Shown: positions 4,971-33,324 of the stretch, piece by piece | How positions within the stretch are numbered: position 1 is the stretch's first letter | How the letters are laid out: every line of letters starts with the position of its first letter | Assembly (NCBI GenBank): GCA_040143965.1 | Contig: JASJQH010000059.1 | Span: 1 to 36,069 of the forward strand | Direction of reading: 5' to 3' | Origin: Basidiobolus ranarum | Taxonomy: Eukaryota | DNA length: 36,069 nt | Translations under genes and position numbers: made by a program | Notes under the pieces: generated by a model | The model's input: the letters and a program-made list of their open reading frames with translations, nothing else | Told to the model about the DNA's origin: nothing | The model's database searches: none

Positions 4971-5858
4971 TTAGCAAGCCCCCAGATCTTTCCAAGCACC
5001 TCCTGCACTTGGAGTTTCATTCTGAGTCCACCAGTTTGCCTGCCAAAGATGACCATTATAAGTAACTTTCTGAGCTCCATTGTAGGCAGTGCTAGCACTC
5101 CAAGCTGAAACTCCCGCACAGGAACCAGTTCCAGGATTACTTGTAGTGGTTGGTTTGGCCGAAGTAGTAGTTGAAGAAGTGGCGGTGGATGAAGGTTTAG
5201 TGGTGGTTGTTGTGGTAGGGTCTGGTCCACTATCAGTGGCTCCAACAGTGATGATAGGGCGTTTATCAAGTAGCTCATGGCCATCACCTTGGCCAATATC
5301 CATCTCTGGAATGGTAGGATACCCAGGGAGATTAGCCACCATAAGCTTGGGACCAGTTATGGTTCCACCAGGGGTTCCACCCTTGATGGTAATATCAACA
5401 CAGTTCATGTAATACTCACGGTTCCCTTCCGCGTTGACCCATGCCCAGGCCAAAGTTGCTCTTTTACTAGGAGGAGCGGTTGCTGGTATAGGGACATCGA
5501 ATGTCAATCCGTTCTTGAAACAATTGCGAACCACAGTTTTCAGGACCACGAAAGTCTGATCATTATCATAAGAAAGGGCAAATTGACAATGACCACCATT
5601 ATGAGTGTTTCCGGGTGCGAATTGAACTGAAACACTATCACCTGCATTGTAAGTGTATTCGACGTTACCAGCCTTGTACCCTTTGCATGGGAAAACCCCC
5701 AGAGGACCATTCATGTCGTAGTCGATATCACCAATGGATTGATAGTACTTACTGAATGTAGATTTTCGAGGAGCGGGCGACTGGATTTCCATGTGGCCTG
5801 ACACGGAGTCCAATAAGCAAAGAGATGCGACAACTAGCAAGTAAGATAAACCTCTCAT
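4971..5858 (-). CDS. AA11-type lytic polysaccharide monooxygenase (chitin-active type) with Thr/Ser linker and C-terminal CBM5/12 chitin-binding module
   Basis: Signal peptide followed by N-terminal His (SVSG|HMEI); FPCKGY; HNGGHCQFALSYD; LAWAWVN..GNREYYMNC; T/S-rich linker; AW...AY....V.YNGH.WQANWWT...P...W. No introns. Confidence 0.88.
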   Translation of the reverse strand: MRGLSYLLVVASLCLLDSVSGHMEIQSPAPRKSTFSKYYQSIGDIDYDMNGPLGVFPCKGYKAGNVEYTYNAGDSVSVQFAPGNTHNGGHCQFALSYDNDQTFVVLKTVVRNCFKNGLTFDVPIPATAPPSKRATLAWAWVNAEGNREYYMNCVDITIKGGTPGGTITGPKLMVANLPGYPTIPEMDIGQGDGHELLDKRPIITVGATDSGPDPTTTTTTKPSSTATSSTTTSAKPTTTSNPGTGSCAGVSAWSASTAYNGAQKVTYNGHLWQANWWTQNETPSAGGAWKDLGAC

Positions 5859-8233: not shown

Positions 8234-10741
8234 ATGAAACTTGTTCCCAGAGAAATGGATAAGCTTATGCTTCACCAAGTTGGTTACTTGGCTCAAATGC
8301 GTCTTGCCAGAGGTATTCAACTCAATCATAGTGAAGCCACTGCTCTTATCGCTTCCCAAGCTTTGGAATTCATGAGAGACGGCAAACACTCTGTCGCCGA
8401 GATCATGGATCTTGGTCGCCAATTGTTGGGTAGAAGACATGTCCGCCCCGCTGTTATGGCCACCCTTCACGAAGTCCAAATTGAAGGTACTTTTACCGAG
8501 GGTACTTTCTTGGTTACCATCCACAGTCCTATTTGTACTGATGACGGAAACCTTGAACTCGCTTTGTACGGTTCCTTCTTGCCTATTCCTTCTATGGATA
8601 TTTTCCCCGCTGCTGCTCCTATCGACAAACACAGTCTCCCAGGATCCCTCACTCTTCGTACTGAGAAGATTGTCCTCGTCCCTAACAGAGAGCGTGTTGC
8701 TCTTGCCGTTACTAACAATGGTGATAGACCTATCCAAGTTGGTTCCCACTACCATTTCGTTGAGACCAACAAGGAATTGTGCTTCGATCGCGGAGTTGCT
8801 TATGGTCGTCGTTTAGACATTGCTGCCGGTACCGCTGTTCGTTTCGAACCAGGAGAGTCCAAGACTGTTTCATTGGTCGATATCGGTGGTGACCAAGTCA
8901 TCACTGGTGGTAACAACATTGCCACTGGCCCCGTTGACCGCTCCAGAGTTCCTGAAATTATTGAGCGTTGTCAAAAACTTGGTTTCCAACACCGTGAACA
9001 ACCTTCCCTTCCTGCTCCCGCTCCATTCAGCTTAGATCACTCCACCTATGTTGATATGTACGGACCTACTGTTGGTGATAAAATCAGACTTGCTGATTCC
9101 GATATTTTCATCGAAATCGAGAAGGACTTCACCGTTTATGGTGATGAATGTAAATTCGGAGGTGGTAAGGTTCTCCGTGAAGGTATGGGTCAGAAAACCG
9201 CCGTTTCAGATGATGACTGCCTTGATTTGGTCATTACCAATGCCATTATCTTGGATCACACTGGTATTATGAAGGCTGATATTGGTATCAAAGATTGCAA
9301 GATCGCTGGTATTGGTAAGGCTGGTAACCCTGATGTTATGGACAACGTCACCCCTGGTATGATCGTCGGTGCCTCAACTGAAGCTTTGGCTGGTGAAGGT
9401 CATATTTTCACCGCTGGTGCCATTGATACTCACGTTCATTTCATCTGCCCTCAATTGTGCTATGAAGCCCTTTCCAGTGGTATCACTACCATGATCGGTG
9501 GTGGAACTGGTCCTAACACTGGTACCAATGCCACTACCTGTACCCCAGGACTCAACCAAATCCAAATGATGCTTCAAAGTACCGATCATATCCCTATGAA
9601 CATCGGTTTAACCGGTAAGGGTAACTGCTCTGATGCTGAAGCTCTCCGTGAACAAGTCAGAGCCGGTGCTCTTGGTCTCAAGCTCCACGAAGATTGGGGA
9701 TCCACTCCCGCTGCTATTGACAACTGCTTGAGCGTTTGCGAAGAATTCGATGTCCAAGCTACCATTCACACTGATACTTTGAACGAATCTGGTTATGTTG
9801 AAGCTTCCATTGAAGCCTTCAAGGAACGTACCATCCATACCTACCATTCTGAAGGTGCTGGTGGTGGTCACGCTCCTGATATTATTCGTGTCTGCGGAGA
9901 ACAATCTGTTCTTCCTTCCTCCACCAACCCTACTCGTCCTTACACCAACAACACCTTGGACGAGCACGTTGATATGTTGATGGTCTGCCATCATCTTGAC
10001 AAACGTATTCCTGAGGATGTTGCTTTCGCTGAATCTAGAATTCGTGCTGAAACCATTGCTGCTGAGGATGTTCTCCACGATCTTGGAGCCATCTCTGTCA
10101 TCTCTTCCGATTCCCAAGCTATGGGTCGTATTGGTGAAGTTATTTCCAGAACCTGGAAGACTGGTAGCAAGATGAAGGTCCAACGTGGTCACTTGGCCGA
10201 TCCTGAACTCAAGGTTCAACCTGATAACGACAATTTCCGTGCCAAGCGTTATGTTTCCAAATACACCATCAACCCTGCCATTGCTCATGGTTGCTCTCAC
10301 ATCATTGGTTCCATTGAAGTCGGTAAGTACGCTGATCTTGTCATGTACAGCCCCGCTTTCTTCGGTACCAAGCCCGAACTTGTTCTCAAGGGTGGTATGG
10401 TCGCCTGGGCCAACATGGGTGATGCCAACGCCTCTATCCCTACTACCGAGCCTGTCATCGGTCGTGAGATGTTCGGTGGCCTCGGTGCTGGTGTTCGTGC
10501 TCTCGCTCTTGTCAGTCAAGACTCCATTGAATCTGGTTTGATCAAGAAGTACAACCTCAAGAAGCAAGCCGAGCCTGTTAAGAAGTGCCGTAACATCAAG
10601 AAGTCCGATATGAAGTTCAACGGTGTTACCCCTGAAATCAAGGTCGATCCTGAAACTTATGAAGTTTACGCTGATGGTGTTCTCATGAGTTGCCCTCCCG
10701 CTACTGAGTTGCCCATGGCTCAAAACTATTTCATCTTCTAA
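8234..10741 (+). CDS. URE1: Urease, single-chain eukaryotic gamma-beta-alpha fusion, 835 aa, no introns
   Basis: [11 protein letters not shown] (gamma); [13 protein letters not shown] (beta); Ni-site motifs [28 protein letters not shown], flap [14 protein letters not shown]. Confidence 0.98.
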
Positions 10742-11130
10742 ATAAGTTTTTGAAACTGAAGTGTAAATTTCAATATATAGAGGTTTTTAACACGTTAGAT
10801 GTTTACTTGAATTCCTTGAAGTCAAATAAAGATGTTATTAACACAATGGATAATAATTGAAATATTAACGTAATATACAACACTAGTTACATTACTAATC
10901 ATATGGCAGTTAGCGTGGGATAGTAAATAAGATTATTTGTATTAGTAACAACACATGATGATTTACAATCTAATACTATAGATGCAGCACGTAGTTCGTG
11001 TTATATTGTAGTACGTGTTATTATTGGCTATTTGGATGTGTCACAAGTGTATCATCTAGTCAGTATAAGAGCTTAGCCATTGAACATGTTGTTATTACAA
11101 ATTTCCACTCTACTTCGCTATACAATCAAT

Positions 11131-11520
11131 ATGGAGTTCGTACAATTTCGTGTGGCCAGACCAACCGATAAGCTCGACAAAGTCATTGAGTTCTATCAAG
11201 AGGGCTTAGGATTGAAGAAGATTGGTTCTTTTGAGAAGCATGCTGGCTATGATGGTGTGATGTTTGGTTTACCAGACGCAAAGTATCACTTGGAGTTCAC
11301 TACCTTTGAGGCGGGAAGCCCCTGCCCTGCTCCAACCAAGGATAACTTGCTGGTCTTCTATATCCCCGACATAGAAAACATCCGAAAGATTGTCAGTCAA
11401 TTGAATAATCTTGGCTACTATGAAGTGGAGCCTGAAAATCCATACTGGAAAGATGGTGGGATCTCCTTTGAAGATCCCGATGGTTGGGGTATTATACTAA
11501 TGAACCGTATTGAAGTATAA
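11131..11520 (+). CDS. VOC/glyoxalase-superfamily protein, bacterial YycE-like
   Basis: QFRVARPTD...FY..GLGL..IG.F..H.GYDGVMFGLP...YHLEFT...SPCPAPTKDNLLVFY...GY.EVEPENPYW...G..FEDPDGW.I.LMN. ATG 11131 is preferred over TTG 11080. TATAA at about 11065 and AATAAA at about 11556. Confidence 0.9.
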   Translation: MEFVQFRVARPTDKLDKVIEFYQEGLGLKKIGSFEKHAGYDGVMFGLPDAKYHLEFTTFEAGSPCPAPTKDNLLVFYIPDIENIRKIVSQLNNLGYYEVEPENPYWKDGGISFEDPDGWGIILMNRIEV

Positions 11521-12037
11521 ACTCCCCCCCATATCTACCTCTATTCAATATCAACAATAAACCGCAGATGCAAACATTTTGTGAACGCTTTACACTTTGT
11601 TAATCAATATCAATTGCCAATTATTTTGTGACTATTTTTGTTGGAGCGTTGCAACCCTGAGATTTGCAACTCTGGGCTTGGGAAGCTGAAATTGGGGTAA
11701 TGTCCAATCCATGTATATATATATATATTTGATTTATTTAATTGCATGTCGATAATATCGCCAACACTCGAATAGGGTATAGGCTGAGTTTCTGCTTCTT
11801 GGATAGCTGAAATTAATTTACTTGTAGTTTAGAAATGTCTCCAATAGAACCCGTTCAAATGGCTTTATCCCTCAAGTAAATGTCTGATACTCAGTTGAGC
11901 TCTTCCAAGCGATATTCTTCATTTTACTCACCTGCTTTTCCCAAGTGAATTTTGAATTACTTCGATAGTTCTCTTCTCTATTTCGTACAACGCCTAGTGT
12001 CTAATTCTTCACTATTGGTACTTTTACCGATCGTTGA

Positions 12038-13849
12038 ATGAACGCTTTTTGTTCTCATCTCTTGACTTTTATAGGTGGCGGAGTATTACTTTCACCCATT
12101 TTATTCTTGGTCCTAGTGGGTTTTCTATCTAATTGGTGGGTAAAGCTTCCAAACTTATCAAACAATGAACCTAAAGTTGAAGTGGTCGCTTCGGGGATGG
12201 AAGAAACCGAAAATTCTCTTCCACATGATTTAGATAACAGTCAAGTAGGGTGGTTACGTATGACAGAGGAATTTGAAGTTGAAGGTGATGGAAATAACAT
12301 GGTTAGACTTATGCAAGAGGTCAATCAATACGTAGACCAAACCTCCAAACGTTCCAAAAGTTTAGTCTATGCCATTTTGAAGCGAGAAACTTTATGGCTG
12401 TATAGTGATGAGAATCTACAAGCATGTCAAGGTGTACTTACCGTATCTCAGTTCGAGGTAACGATTTTCCCCAGGCATTTGCCTGATAACGAGATATACC
12501 ACAAAGAATTGCCCATTCACATGAAGAAAAAATGGGAGAATAATGCCACGGAATATTTCTTTTTCGTCAACACATCTTCAGAGAAGGAAGATTGGTTTAT
12601 AGCTTTACTGCAGGCTTCAAGAATGAAAAGACTAGGTATTCGTGGTGATCTGGAAAGGAGTAATACCTTGAATTTCGACGAAGCGGCTATCAGTCAGTTG
12701 ATTTGTATATTACATTCCAACAAGCATCACGAAGAGACACTATGGTTGAATGGTTTTATTGGAAGAGTATTTCTAAGTATATACAAAACCCCTCGAATTA
12801 AGCAGCTCATCCTCGACAAAATCCTCAAAAAAGTCAACAAGCTTCGAATGGTAACCTTCTTGGGAAATATCCAAGTTCTCAATGTAGATGTTGGTAACGG
12901 GGCTCCAACCATCAGCCATCCTAAACTTGTTGAACTGAATAAGACCGGAGAGTTGAAAATGGAATTCTTTATGAACTACCGCGGGGAGTTCAGCGTTGAG
13001 ATTCAATCACAGGCTAGCATAGAGATACCCATATTCAAGCCACTAATATTTAATCTGGGCCTAGGCATAACACTGAAGGAACTCTCTGGACGAATGATAT
13101 TGCATATAAAACCTCCACCGACCAATCGATTCTGGCTGGGCTTTTGTGAAGCACCATCGATGTCATTTAAGTTTGCACCATCTGCCTGCCATAAACAGTT
13201 GAATTTCCCTCATCTCACTTGGATAATTGAAAAAGCAGTCGTGAGCGCGATTAAGCGAGCTTTGGTATTTCCTAACATGGATGATTTCCCCTTCTTCGAC
13301 TCGAATGGTTCCGGAGGTGTGTTTGCTAAGGATGAGCAAGACTCTCCCTCCACTGTGTATGGCAATTATCCAGCCTCTAATCGACACCGTAGCTCTTCAG
13401 TCGGTCAAGATACTCTCAATACCAGAAGCCATTTAAGTACAAATGCCCCCTGTTTTAGCAAAGGCCTGGATGACAAACCACCCAAGATATGTATCAATGG
13501 AGATACGTTCCTAAGTAAACATCAACCACCAAAAAGTCTATTCCATACCCGTTTACGCTGTAGCTCTTTAAACGATCTTTCTTTGGGAAGCAACTCATCC
13601 GATGCAGAGATTCAGACGTCTCCAAATGCAGGGGAGTTGCTTACGACACGAAACGAGAATTTCTACAGTGTCATAACGCCAACGCGAAATTTGAGTTCCC
13701 CAGAAATCGGCCCAAAGCAATCTAGAAAAAGGGCGAATTCAAGGGCGAATTCCAATCGGAAAAATCTATTTGGAAGTCTATTTGGACCCAATTCCAAATC
13801 TGATCACAATGGCAAAATTGACACTTGCATTGGTTCTTTGATTCACTAA
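12038..13849 (+). CDS. Nvj2/TEX2-like membrane-contact-site protein (N-terminal TM, PH, SMP domain, disordered tail)
   Basis: N-terminal hydrophobic helix; PH motifs YAILK..TLWLY and KEDWFIAL; SMP motifs WLNGFIGRVFL, KPPPTNRFWLGF, LVFPNMDDFPFF; no introns. Confidence 0.85.
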   Translation: MNAFCSHLLTFIGGGVLLSPILFLVLVGFLSNWWVKLPNLSNNEPKVEVVASGMEETENSLPHDLDNSQVGWLRMTEEFEVEGDGNNMVRLMQEVNQYVDQTSKRSKSLVYAILKRETLWLYSDENLQACQGVLTVSQFEVTIFPRHLPDNEIYHKELPIHMKKKWENNATEYFFFVNTSSEKEDWFIALLQASRMKRLGIRGDLERSNTLNFDEAAISQLICILHSNKHHEETLWLNGFIGRVFLSIYKTPRIKQLILDKILKKVNKLRMVTFLGNIQVLNVDVGNGAPTISHPKLVELNKTGELKMEFFMNYRGEFSVEIQSQASIEIPIFKPLIFNLGLGITLKELSGRMILHIKPPPTNRFWLGFCEAPSMSFKFAPSACHKQLNFPHLTWIIEKAVVSAIKRALVFPNMDDFPFFDSNGSGGVFAKDEQDSPSTVYGNYPASNRHRSSSVGQDTLNTRSHLSTNAPCFSKGLDDKPPKICINGDTFLSKHQPPKSLFHTRLRCSSLNDLSLGSNSSDAEIQTSPNAGELLTTRNENFYSVITPTRNLSSPEIGPKQSRKRANSRANSNRKNLFGSLFGPNSKSDHNGKIDTCIGSLIH

Positions 13850-28733: not shown

Positions 28734-31700
28734 TTAATTGGAAATTTGATGACTACATTCATCCGTTTCTTCGTCAACCTTCTTAAAGTAGATCTTTAAT
28801 TGCTGATTAAGTTCCTCTAGAAGCCATTGAAGTTTATCCAATTTTTTAGTGAAACCTGGATTTTCATCAGATAATAGAGTGGTAATGGAGCTCTCCAAGT
28901 CGGAAATAAGCGAGTCTAGTACAGTGTATGGGAGGTATCGAGATGTAAGCTTAGCGGTGACTGGATGAACTACTGATAATTCCTTGCGTATCTGTTGAAG
29001 TGCACATTGTGCTGCTTCTTCAACCAATTCATACTTCATACAAATTCGAATGAAATCTTCACAGTTGTAGGCCAAATAGGTCTGAGCTAACCAAGGTGGA
29101 AGCACCATTTCACTTGTGGAAGATAAGAACCTTTCAATGACACACTTGTAGTATTTGAAACAGGTGGCTGAGGAGTCATGTTGCTTCAAGTACTTCGAGA
29201 GTAGCTTCCAAGTGCGATCTGATACAGAGCCATCCCAAGTGGCCATACCATCATTAACCAGAATCATATCATTATCATCGATGGGCTTGTCGAGCCTATC
29301 ATGGTCTACAAGTTGAATGCATTTGAATGTAAGTGACTCGAAAATATGTGTCAAGTCCATCTTGAAGGTCACAGCAGTGGAGATGGCCATGTCATACATT
29401 CCAGCTTGGACGAAGAGTGTGACGATATCGTTGGGCTCCATGGAATAACCAGACGATTCCAATTCAGGGTAACGTCCAATAAGTTGAATCTTCGATATAC
29501 ACAGGGAATACTCTTGCTTGATATCCTCAAGTTTGACTACACGGTAATCGTCTTCACGGTTAATGTCAGTGACATAATTAGAAGTACCGAGGTGAAGTCT
29601 CTTTCTGCTACGTTTGTCATTGTCGGCCAAATCACTGGGGCCTTTCATGACAATCCACGCGTAAGGTTCGTCGACCATATGTAGAGCGTTGATGGCAGCA
29701 AGATAACTCTTGCTCCTTTCAGCAGAGATTTTCATAAAGAGGGTAGGGGTATCAACAGTTCCCAAACGACGTGCATACCTGTACATAGCAGCGGCAGCAT
29801 TTCGGTAGTCTCCGCGGAATACATGATAAACATATAGGATTTTGTAATAATTGGGTGTAGCCAATACATCACCATGTCTGGCCTTCAAAAGTAATGTTTG
29901 CTCAACCTCCTGTTGAAGCCCAACGAAAGAAAAGCGACAAAGACGATCAGCTTGATTGTTTTCGCACATCACAGTCAATAAATGACGGAGGCAATCACGT
30001 TTGGTATCCTGCTCAGGGTTAGACATGATAGCAAGATAGGCTTCTTCATACTGGCCAAGCTCAAGAGCACTCTTGAAAAGTTTGACTGATAATGGCTTAG
30101 TCAATTCCTTTGAGTGAGTCGACTGCTTCTCTAAAGCGTTGAGAGCTATCTTCGCAAAGATCATAACATGTTCATAGGCATTGTGTTCTTCAAACATACC
30201 GGCAATGTGATGGTAAAAGCAGGGAAGATCTTGGCATGTATTAGGATTGATAACATATGCAAGATCGCTTTTAGTAATGCCAAACGACTCATCCACTCCG
30301 ATAGCAGCAGATTCGAAGGATCTTTGAGCCTCATCAAATCTACCAGAGGTAAGATGTACTTTTCCCCAAAGATACATCACTGCAGGACTCTTGATTAAGA
30401 AACTGAGAAATTGAGCAGCAAGATCGGAATATCCGAAAACAACCAAACGATATGCGAATTTGATTTGAGAAGGTTGGGTAGAGATCGAAAGAGAAGAATC
30501 GGCTAATGATATCTTGTGTAAGAACTGAGATACTGCTTGATTCAATAGAACGCTAACTTGTGTGGAAGCAAAGTTCAAATGGATAGGATAGTGATGATGC
30601 AAGAGAGTGTGTACGAGGCTATAGCTCAAAGTTCCGGAAGCCCCAGCTGACTCAGAAACGTTGAGGGTGGCGAATTTTCCAACGAAATTCTCCGTTTCTT
30701 CCGAGAATGAGTCCTCTGGATACTCTTCGACTTTGGGGCGTGCTTTTTCTACAACCTGTGTTGACATCCAGTTCAATAAGGAGTAAGAATGCATAGCAGA
30801 CATGCTGCAAGAGAATACTGATACTGAATTGCTCATCAGCTTACGATGACCATCGAAAACCAACACTACAGACATGAGCAAAAACAAATTACGACTGAAA
30901 GCGTAACGAGATCCTACGACTTGTTGAATACCCATAGCGACAATAGCATCCATGAGCATACTGGTTTTGAAGATTAACTGAGTAGAGTCACTGTCATTGT
31001 GTAGAGACTCGGGCTTGACATCAACAAGCGAATCGAGCAAAACACTTATAGTTCCCTTGATATCGTTACATGACTTCAAAAGATTAAATACGCGTTTGAT
31101 CAATGCGGGCGAAATAAAAGTAGCAAGGTGTTTATCATAGAACTCCTGTGCAAAAGTTTCAACAGAAAGGAAGAGTGGATTGGACAATACAGAGCAAAGA
31201 TCCTCCTCAAGACTGGCCATATTACCTGAAGGAATAGCTTGAGCGATAGTCTTCAGACACTTGCTAAGCTTGACAATATCTCCGCGAATATCATTGACTG
31301 AGATCTGAGAGTACGAAGAAGCGAGAAGTTTAGAAGAAACCAGTGAAAGACCTGCAAGTTCCAAATCACCATTCAAATGATGGTATAAAGCTTCCATGGG
31401 ATCACAAACACGAACGGTGGAGAAGCCCTCACGCTTGACAACGAATACAGTGTGGGTTAAAGATAACATCGATAGGCCCAGGGGGGTATTGGCTCGATTG
31501 TGTAATTCGATACAGGTAGAGACAAAACGAAGCCATTCTACCTTTGCTCTTTTCTCAATTTCCTCAGGTGTGTCATCAGTGTCGTTGATAAAATCTGCAG
31601 ACCCAACTATGGTGGAGATTTGTTCGCGAACGTCAACTCTACAAAGACGGGATTTGCTAAGAGTGGACTGCTCACTGACGAACAAGCCCAATGCTTCGTT

Positions 31701-33324
31701 AAGCACAGAGGTTGAGAATCTTCCGGGATAGAACAAGTACTCGATAAACACATGCTTCATGCCATCCGATGAATTCTGTAAAAGAGAATCGAAATAATCT
31801 ACATCGACCTCAGGTTTCAGCGCGGCAATGATTGACCACCACCTCTGGCCGTAATTAGATTGATCCTTGACATCCTCAGTGTCGATTTCGAAATAAATGG
31901 GGATTTGAGTCATTCTCAAAACCGCTTGATTTTGTCTTTCCCACAACGTCCATAGAGACCAAAGGTTGTCATTGTTCTTTCTAGGAGGGGAGATTTGGAA
32001 CTCAACTAGAGATTCTGGAACTTGCCCTCCGCTTTGACTGGATGAATAAGTCTTCTTATGGACCAACTCCAAATCAATCAGATTCCCTGAACAGTCAACT
32101 TGACCACGGAAAACTCCAAAGTAAGGATTCGACTCGGATGGAACATACACCACAAGGTTGAATATCGATCCATCGGTTTCGGACTCGGCCTTTACTACAG
32201 AGATATAGGGCTTAGGAAGTGGTGGAAGAGGAATCTCAGGGTGCGCTGAATCCGAGTCGAATAAAGAAATGGTTTTAACACATGATTGCGTCCCCAATGA
32301 CCATATTCTAAGTTTTCTGTCACGGCATAATGAAAATACGAAAGCATTAAGTGACAAATAGTCGAAGGAAGCAAGCGATATCGGTTGCGAAAGTGAAAAT
32401 TTGCCAAGGTCGGAAGAATGTGACCCTCCATAATCCGAGTTACTGAGTTTTGAAAGAAAACGGCTGGGGACGATGGGAAGAAAGCTTTTCACTTGAGATA
32501 GGAAGTTGTTTTCCACAAGATTATACTGGCGAAAGTGTTCTAAAGTAAAGTCAGTATCTTGCATGTAGAAGGTCAAAAATTATGGAATATAGAAAATATA
32601 TTGCAAACAAACCTGAAGATATCTCATACTCGTTCTCCCCAAGGCTTTGTTCTATCTGACCACCACATGCTAAATCGATAGCTGTGAGAGAGCCATTGGT
32701 GAAGGTAACCACCGCAAGCTCAGCATTAACAGAATGAAATAAGATTGGAACTCTGTTATCGGTAATATCGAGTCTATAATATTTGCAGTAGTCTCTAGGC
32801 AATGGGTTGGCATGGAAGAGATTATTGAAAGGGAAAGAAAAGCGATATACAAGCCCAGACTCTGTGAGCAATAAACAGGTAAGTGAGCGAGAATCATAAT
32901 CCTCATAAAACGATACACCAGGTTGGATCTTCGTAGGGAAAACAAAGTAAACAGGTTTTGAAGACTCAATTTCGTCGTAATGGAAGATTGCAGCTGAGCG
33001 AGGTCCACCTTGAAGCTCGATGCCATCACCGAGTGGAGGAGTAACCAAAGAAAGATGTCTAAATTCTAAAATTCTTCCGTCACCAATAACTCGCCACGAA
33101 ATGAAGTTATTCAACTGAAAAGAAACTCGGTAAGTAGAACCGAATGAAGGTTCTTCCGTTTCAAGTGATAAATTAGGGGATGACTCTGGAAGATCTTCGT
33201 CTAACAAATCCTCTGGATATGGAACATGGTGATAGGTAGGAGCTGTGTTGCTAGAGCAAAAATCCAGTTGTAAAGGTACCTCCTTATACCACCAAAACGA
33301 TTCTGGGTTTTGTATGGCTGGCAT
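28734..33324 (-). CDS. NUP160: Nucleoporin Nup120/Nup160, 2 exons (intron about 32558-32612), about 1510 aa
   Basis: N-terminal YKEV, FISWR; FSLCRDRKLRIWSL; YLF.PGRFS; helical C-terminus with YEEAY.AI, DCLR.L..VMCE, YYKILY.YH..RGDYRNAA..MY. A 55-nt GT-AG intron joins the two ORFs in frame. Confidence 0.9.

Follow-up and report, generated by a model that had tools for sequence, protein, structure and literature searches.

Positions 11131-11520 of a Basidiobolus ranarum contig (GenBank assembly GCA_040143965.1, JASJQH010000059.1) encode what is judged, with good confidence, to be an intact protein of the vicinal oxygen chelate (VOC; glyoxalase/bleomycin-resistance/dioxygenase) superfamily that belongs to its bacterial YycE-like branch and whose gene is resident in Basidiobolus after a bacterial transfer. 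Confidence is higher still in the joint claim that the protein is YycE-like and that its gene is of bacterial origin. The analysis covers positions 1 to 36,069 of the forward strand, and this whole stretch of 36,069 nucleotides (nt) is referred to as the window. It followed up a sequence-only reading, made from the letters and their open reading frames (ORFs) without database searches, which had proposed a domesticated, horizontally acquired VOC gene downstream of a urease.

The YycE-like protein

The coding sequence runs, stop codon included, over 11131..11520 on the forward strand and is defined by the ORF translation, by its Pfam matches and by its match to PDB entry 1TWU. It is, as the sequence-only reading had it, an intronless ORF of 129 aa downstream of a urease, from whose stop codon (10741) the ATG at 11131 is separated by a spacer of 389 nt. 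The gene's own stop codon is at 11518-11520, and the whole span falls within the interval 11060-11565 that had been singled out at the start. An alternative in-frame ATG at 11086 would lead to a product of 144 aa; the Basidiobolus meristosporus and Rhizopus homologues begin at the position equivalent to 11131, not 11086. Within the 36-kb window the gene is present as a single copy.

The family assignment is carried by two Pfam models, each with a gathering cut-off of 27 bits. Residues 6-57 match the N-terminal model PF22658 (YycE-like_N) over profile positions 1-52 of 52, with 103.7 bits and an E-value of 4.6e-30, and residues 71-125 match the C-terminal model PF22659 (YycE-like_C) over positions 1-55 of 55, with 94.2 bits and an E-value of 4.9e-27. 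The general Glyoxalase model PF00903 scores 53.5 bits against the 129-aa protein, and an NCBIfam scan of it matched no family. The sole solved relative by sequence is Bacillus subtilis YycE (1TWU), a structural-genomics entry, which is matched by phmmer over residues 3-126 with an E-value of 5.5e-51. All of the short motifs that had been quoted for the family are found and align with B. subtilis YycE over this region, and the YycE-like VOC identity that had been proposed from them is confirmed by both Pfam models and by 1TWU.

AlphaFold, given a 61-row alignment, yields a model with a predicted local distance difference test score (pLDDT) of 93.1. The model's top Foldseek match is again 1TWU, with a template modelling (TM) score of 0.93, a root-mean-square deviation of 1.3 over 126 columns and 58% identity. 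A large gap follows before glyoxalase I, FosX, TnmS and other VOC proteins are reached at TM ~0.6-0.75 and 15-25% identity. DSSP assigns to module 1 of the model strands at residues 6-11, 29-37, 40-46 and 52-59 with a helix at 15-25, and to module 2 strands at 73-77, 110-114 and 120-124 with a helix at 81-93. The protein is accordingly modelled as two tandem beta-alpha-beta-beta-beta modules of the VOC superfamily, the clan of PF00903. B. subtilis YycE is thus like the window protein in its two-part Pfam architecture, its length class, its motifs and its fold, whereas the window gene differs in its setting on a nuclear contig of a fungus, in its host-like codon usage and in flanks that are not bacterial.

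In canonical VOC metalloenzymes each module contributes two metal ligands, one from its first strand and one from its last, and in Escherichia coli glyoxalase I (GlxI) these ligands are His5, Glu56, His74 and Glu122. In the window protein three of the four positions are without a ligand. Strands 6-11 (FRVARP), 73-77 (LLVFY) and 120-124 (GIILM) contain neither His nor Glu, as the sequence-only reading had correctly noticed for the first of them, and the residues found at the three missing ligand positions are Phe/Arg, Leu and Ile. The sole canonical ligand left is Glu55, which is located with His53 on strand 52-59, and two conserved arginines, Arg7 and Arg10, stand at the first-strand metal-ligand place. 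In profile alignments the conserved family 'LEft' lies opposite 'LELT' of plant glyoxalase I and the family 'DPDGWrvvL' opposite 'DPDGWKVVL' of 5D7Z/6BNZ; the family V/I, which is Ile122 here, lies opposite the Glu of DPDGWKVEL in plant glyoxalase I 6BNN. Glyoxalase I (E. coli 1F9Z, plant 5D7Z/6BNZ) has the same VOC fold, with Foldseek TM scores of 0.66-0.75, and its fourth-strand Glu corresponds to Glu55, but identity is only ~17-20% and its other three ligands have no counterpart. With Glu55 alone retained of the four ligands, the protein falls outside the metal-dependent glyoxalase I group. Because three of the four canonical ligand positions are lost, no metal centre of the standard glyoxalase I, dioxygenase or FosA type is to be expected.

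The family has nonetheless its own set of fixed residues. In the alignment, whose 61 rows represent a diverse set of the family, E55 and W106 never vary, and conservation is at least 90% at R7, A9, R10, Y22, F34, H37, G39, G42, G46, F56, L73, L74, V75, Y77, N103, P104, D115, P116 and D117. All 21 of these residues (two invariant and 19 nearly invariant) are retained in the window protein. Conservation across bacterial phyla and fungi amounts to 60-74% identity, with the 21 fixed positions and the two-arginine first strand in common.

A mode of action may be sketched on this basis. The product would be a small cytosolic protein, a signal peptide not being expected since the first strand begins at residue 6. 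In place of the missing metal ligands, the conserved Arg7, Arg10, His37, Glu55, Tyr77, Asn103 and Trp106 would allow one specific small molecule to be bound or converted even though the usual 2His/2Glu metal centre is missing. The ligand would probably be a xenobiotic or a microbial metabolite, anionic or aromatic in character, and the most likely use would be in detoxification or resistance in a fungus that lives among bacteria. The suggestion that the protein is a metal-independent small-molecule binder or converter for self-protection or detoxification is put forward tentatively. The metal-free VOC binders, such as the bleomycin- and mitomycin-binding proteins and TnmS1/S3, are small as well and need no catalytic metal to sequester a natural product; they give weak fold and profile matches (E 0.2 or worse) and show no specific sequence relationship to the window protein, such that they may serve at most as a functional analogy.

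Domain fusions provide a possible further clue to the function of the family, in that the partners mostly act on small molecules. Amongst 27 long YycE-like representatives, the YycE-like domain is joined to a GNAT acetyltransferase in four, to an ABM monooxygenase in two and to a SnoaL-like domain in two, whilst MazG, a pyridoxal phosphate (PLP) enzyme, an amidase, a flavin mononucleotide reductase, ACT, a receiver domain and Schlafen/AlbA_2 occur in one each. One representative has a second YycE-like copy in tandem and one a weak second glyoxalase domain, and 10 of the 27 contain no partner domain at E <= 1e-5. Clusters in which GNAT or ABM is fused to a YycE-like domain are also present in the Atlas. 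Fusion or duplication representatives include P0137, P0158, P0233, P0241, P0273, P0164 and P0246.

Bacterial origin and residence in the fungal genome

Homologues of the window protein are described here from the best 120 of 1408 matches, and those of the Rhizopus protein from the best 120 of 1524. With the window protein as query the closest homologue is ORX89177.1 of B. meristosporus CBS 931.73, annotated as 'Glyoxalase/Bleomycin resistance protein/Dihydroxybiphenyl dioxygenase', an orthologue of 129 aa with 83% identity and the same start. It is followed by a JGI protein at 74% identity, by Bacillus manliponensis at 72% and by Rhizopus delemar/arrhizus at 74%, and the remaining named rows are all bacterial, chiefly Bacillus and other Bacillales (mostly Bacillaceae), down to 64%. 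The Rhizopus query gives the same picture and adds R. microsporus together with four Logan clusters on contigs of ~1.2 kb. The homologues of R. delemar (RO3G_15552, EIE90841.1), R. arrhizus and R. microsporus are 128-129 aa long, 68-74% identical to the window protein and have the same MEF start, but belong to a different fungal phylum. The two sequence types seen in Rhizopus were considered as paralogues, an idea that was rejected as they are orthologues of different Rhizopus species. Among the matches listed for the two queries, the only named eukaryotes are Basidiobolus and Rhizopus.

The wider family is large and predominantly bacterial. At E <= 0.001, 1307 cluster representatives at 50% identity are matched, and the Atlas clusters of the family are 78-100% bacterial. 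Its taxonomic spread takes in Bacillota, Pseudomonadota, Bacteroidota, Actinomycetota and Cyanobacteria, and the 35 bacterial loci that were compared at the DNA level come from genomes of Bacillota, Alpha-, Beta- and Gammaproteobacteria, a 'delta proteobacterium' and Bacteroidota. Homologues are found on 84 of 72,556 plasmid records, including a 202-kb plasmid of B. pseudomycoides, and carriage by phage was not seen among 50,697 phage records.

A careful maximum-likelihood tree of 58 rows, named outgroups included, places every fungal row within a group of 42 that is dominated by Bacillota and has support of 94/91. This group is made up of 27 Bacillota, 10 rows of the fungal clade, two Acidobacteriota and three others, one of them on a very long branch; outside it lie 14 rows of proteobacterial type (96/83) and two Bacteroidota metagenome-assembled genomes. 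As the fungal sequences are nested in the Bacillota-dominated group, a bacterial origin is well supported by the trees, with bacteria to fungi as the only economical direction of transfer. Most probably, then, fungi acquired the gene horizontally from a bacterium belonging to this group; it is at this level, rather than that of the genus, that the phylogeny places the donor. The acquisition from Firmicutes-like bacteria that the sequence-only reading had put forward is therefore upheld by both the homologue listing and the trees, with the donor defined to the level of the group.

Several Logan/ENA sequences on contigs of ~1.2-6.5 kb (P0032, P0036, P0109, P0293, P0299 and their cluster mates) group with Rhizopus at 99/96. 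These sequences start with MEF, MDF or MKF, like the fungal proteins, and probably come from further Mucorales-type fungi.

The gene also has the appearance of a long-standing resident. Its GC content at third codon positions (GC3) is 0.481, against 0.386-0.483 for five other ORFs of the window and 0.20-0.26 for the Bacillus cereus-group homologues, and a synonymous-codon score groups it with the window genes. The Priestia koreensis homologue, with a GC3 of 0.48, is host-like too, and since some bacterial homologues are similar in composition GC3 does not date the transfer. DNA similarity to the 35 bacterial loci (66-78%) is confined to 11131-11521, that is, from ATG to stop. No similarity of the flanking spacers to these loci was detected by blastn, nor by tblastn of translated pieces at E < 0.08, and a co-transferred bacterial flank was consequently rejected. 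The protein differs from its B. meristosporus orthologue at 23 positions, none of them among the 21 conserved ones (hypergeometric p 0.011), and the same is true of the differences from R. arrhizus (36), R. microsporus (41) and B. manliponensis (38). Identity to B. meristosporus is 83% for the YycE-like protein and 83% for the neighbouring urease. It follows that the gene was already there when the two species split, and the transfer is not private to this genome. After entry, the gene has taken on host codon usage whilst keeping every family-conserved residue, and the pattern is what a resident, constrained nuclear gene looks like. The description 'domesticated' can therefore be kept in the sense of host codon usage and residue conservation, these being its whole basis.

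Two explanations would do away with a transfer into fungi altogether. An intronless gene with ~70% identity to Bacillus proteins could be a bacterial contaminant or the product of a chimeric assembly in which a Bacillus-like fragment was joined to a fungal contig. We give this next to no credence: the bacterial similarity is restricted to the 390-nt coding sequence with no bacterial flanks, there is no N in the window, eukaryotic genes are found 389 nt upstream and 517 nt downstream, the GC3 of 0.48 is like that of the window genes and unlike that of the B. cereus-group homologues, and no bacterial protein exceeds ~74% identity among the matches listed, as against 83% for the B. meristosporus orthologue on its 70-kb scaffold. 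Genes on both sides, composition and orthologue thus agree with the sequence-only reading that this is not contamination. It is also very improbable, if slightly less so, that an old eukaryotic gene was inherited vertically and lost nearly everywhere, its bacterial look being due to slow evolution of the family. The family is indeed unusually conserved, with 60-70% identity across bacterial phyla, the topology of Basidiobolus versus the Rhizopus type matches the species tree, and the divergence ratios are broadly similar (83% versus ~72% for the VOC protein, 83% versus ~66% for the urease). Against it, the only named eukaryotes among the matches listed are Basidiobolus and Rhizopus, the Bacillota-dominated group encloses the fungal rows and does not stand next to them, and vertical descent would need very many losses.

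As to how many times the gene entered fungi, the trees, which have 129 alignment columns to draw on, give differing answers. In a quick tree of 130 rows the two Basidiobolus, three Rhizopus and the Logan rows form one clade with a Shimodaira-Hasegawa-like approximate likelihood ratio test (SH-aLRT) support of 91, and in a careful tree of 66 rows the fungal clade has support of 93/89 and is recovered in 93% of 200 bootstrap trees. Moreover, Lys51 and Thr58 are shared by 2/2 Basidiobolus and 21/21 Rhizopus-type rows, as opposed to 7% and 5%, respectively, of 166 other rows. A single acquisition common to Basidiobolus and Rhizopus is on balance slightly favoured. The alternative, in which Basidiobolus and the Rhizopus-type lineage each received the gene from related, possibly unsampled, Bacillota-like donors in two or more independent transfers, is a variant of horizontal gene transfer (HGT) and not a denial of it, and is a serious contender with a little under an even chance. 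The clade and the two shared residues speak against it. In its favour are the occurrence of homologues on plasmids, one of them from B. pseudomycoides, and the tree, constraint and identity results that open the next paragraph. A fuller scenario, to which we attach a similar measure of belief as to independent transfers, is that one YycE-like gene entered an early terrestrial fungus, or crossed once between fungal phyla, and was kept almost unchanged in Basidiobolus (Zoopagomycota) and Rhizopus-type Mucorales.

A number of observations weigh against the overall picture of a resident gene of bacterial origin with a small-molecule role. In the 58-row tree the fungal clade is present in just 42% of 200 bootstrap trees, and the maximum-likelihood tree needs two changes. 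Forcing Basidiobolus together with its best Bacillus matches (B. manliponensis/pseudomycoides) is not rejected, with a log-likelihood difference of 21.05 and an approximately unbiased (AU) test p of 0.176. At 71% identity, the best bacterial row is as close to the window protein as are the Rhizopus-type rows at 67-73%. Further fungal members may exist at lower identity beyond the best 120 of 1408 or of 1524, and no YycE-like match from B. ranarum is present among the best 120 of 1408, though its urease is in the database. Gene neighbourhoods differ among all three bacterial loci examined, where the neighbours are a MarR protein and a PLP enzyme, a helicase, and an IseA-like protein and a hydrolase, respectively; a conserved bacterial operon was rejected on account of these differences, which yield no functional clue. 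The fusions stem from predicted proteins, and some may perhaps be artefacts of gene calling. No experiment that assigns a function to any YycE-like family member was found in the literature, the only phenotype found in print being a negative one, namely that a B. subtilis yycE mutant shows no sensitivity to high iron, as reported in PMC6212828.

The locus and its neighbours

The urease lies immediately upstream, at 8234..10741 on the forward strand, as an uninterrupted ORF of 835 aa that encodes a single-chain eukaryotic enzyme with Pfam Urease_gamma, Urease_beta, Urease_alpha and Amidohydro_1 domains. Its identity is 86% to a B. ranarum urease, 83% to a B. meristosporus urease and 64-69% to ureases of Mucorales, Glomeromycotina and chytrids. 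Since the urease is closest to those of Basidiobolus, the contig is assigned by sequence to a fungus of the Basidiobolus lineage, distinct from the two database strains that carry these ureases. The urease ORF is without an intron, and two urease paralogues are found in each of B. ranarum (86% and 73% identity to the window urease) and B. meristosporus (83% and 70%).

Functional coupling of the YycE-like gene to the adjoining urease had been raised as a speculative possibility; it could take the form, for example, of handling a by-product of urea metabolism. The two genes are on the same strand and 389 nt apart, and this proximity is all that speaks for the idea. The B. meristosporus orthologue is on a scaffold of 70,218 bp, whereas the two ureases of that species are on scaffolds of 75,607 and 268,249 bp, so that local gene order differs between the two fungi. 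There is no urease beside the homologue in any of the three bacterial loci examined, and none of the 27 long representatives is fused to a urease-related domain. Coupling is thus regarded as highly improbable; the suggestion did not survive, as the adjacency is conserved neither in B. meristosporus nor in the bacterial loci, and the urease, not supported as a functional link, appears to be an accidental neighbour.

The intergenic spacers on either side of the gene, at 10742..11130 (389 nt) and at 11521..12037 (517 nt, up to the next ORF start at 12038), are not of bacterial type. Within the upstream spacer a TATAAG at 11064..11069 on the forward strand, 62 nt before the ATG, is a weak candidate for a TATA-like element, and in the downstream spacer an AATAAA at 11556..11561 on the same strand, 36 nt after the stop, is a similarly weak candidate for a polyadenylation signal. 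Both of the eukaryote-style signals that had been pointed out are therefore present. They carry no evidential weight, because the hexamer counts in the window are at or near, or below, those expected by chance: TATAAG is found 17 times against 26.2 expected, and AATAAA 53 times against 48.6.

The window contains only 12 ORFs of at least 130 aa. Downstream of the YycE-like gene, at 12038..13849 on the forward strand, is an Nvj2-like ORF of 603 aa with a PH domain (8.1e-06) and a weak MMM1/SMP match, the MMM1 score (E 0.00028, 20.7 bits) being under the cut-off of 21.9. A nucleoporin of the Nup120/160 type is encoded on the reverse strand at 28734-33324 by two ORFs, 28734-32564 and 32551-33324, which overlap by 14 nt; its beta-propeller is divided between them, pointing to an intron or a frame change at ~32551-32564. 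A katanin con80 ORF is also found on the same 36-kb contig, which the nucleoporin, the katanin and the single-chain urease show to be eukaryotic. On the reverse strand at 4971-5858, a 295-aa ORF encodes a protein that has a region resembling an AA11-type lytic polysaccharide monooxygenase (LPMO) and, at its C-terminus, a chitin-binding module of the CBM5/12 type. PDB 7P3U is matched by residues 21-177 (E 1.9e-26), the AA11 LPMOs 4MAH and 9EXJ are matched at ~2e-11, and the CBM5/12 Pfam match is 5.5e-09. The 355-aa ORF at 3-1070 on the forward strand is open at the 5' end of the contig and has no Pfam or NCBIfam match.

Meaning for Basidiobolus and for the YycE-like family

The finding is one more case of the bacteria-to-fungus transfer already known in Basidiobolus. 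Tabima et al. 2020 (PMC7466969) describe the Basidiobolus HGT candidates as mostly intronless, with codon usage indistinguishable from the host and flanked by fungal genes, and attribute 112 HGT candidates of B. meristosporus CBS 931.73 to Firmicutes. The window gene, which is intronless and has host-like codons and fungal flanks, fits the set as described there. The word 'Glyoxalase' occurs 0 times in the main text of PMC7466969, and the YycE-like gene may already be on the gene list of that study. ORX89177 has 0 occurrences in one supplement of a survey of HGT in 44 fungi (PMC11291939), and no paper that treats YycE-like genes in fungi was found in the literature. Among early-diverging fungi, Basidiobolus is already the standard example of extensive uptake of genes from bacteria, and one more gene leaves that picture unchanged.

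The presence of the gene in Rhizopus as well makes it a possible marker for an old transfer, or for one relayed between zygomycete phyla. If there was a single entry, then Lys51 and Thr58 would be the marks of that event, and the extreme conservation would point to one specific small-molecule substrate that is important where fungi and Bacillus-like bacteria live together. The YycE-like family is very conserved and widespread, and a crystal structure has been available since 2004, yet it is still without an assigned function. The retention of the gene under constraint in fungi argues that this function can be carried over into other cells than those of bacteria and be of use there, and fungal knock-outs would offer an extra route to it.

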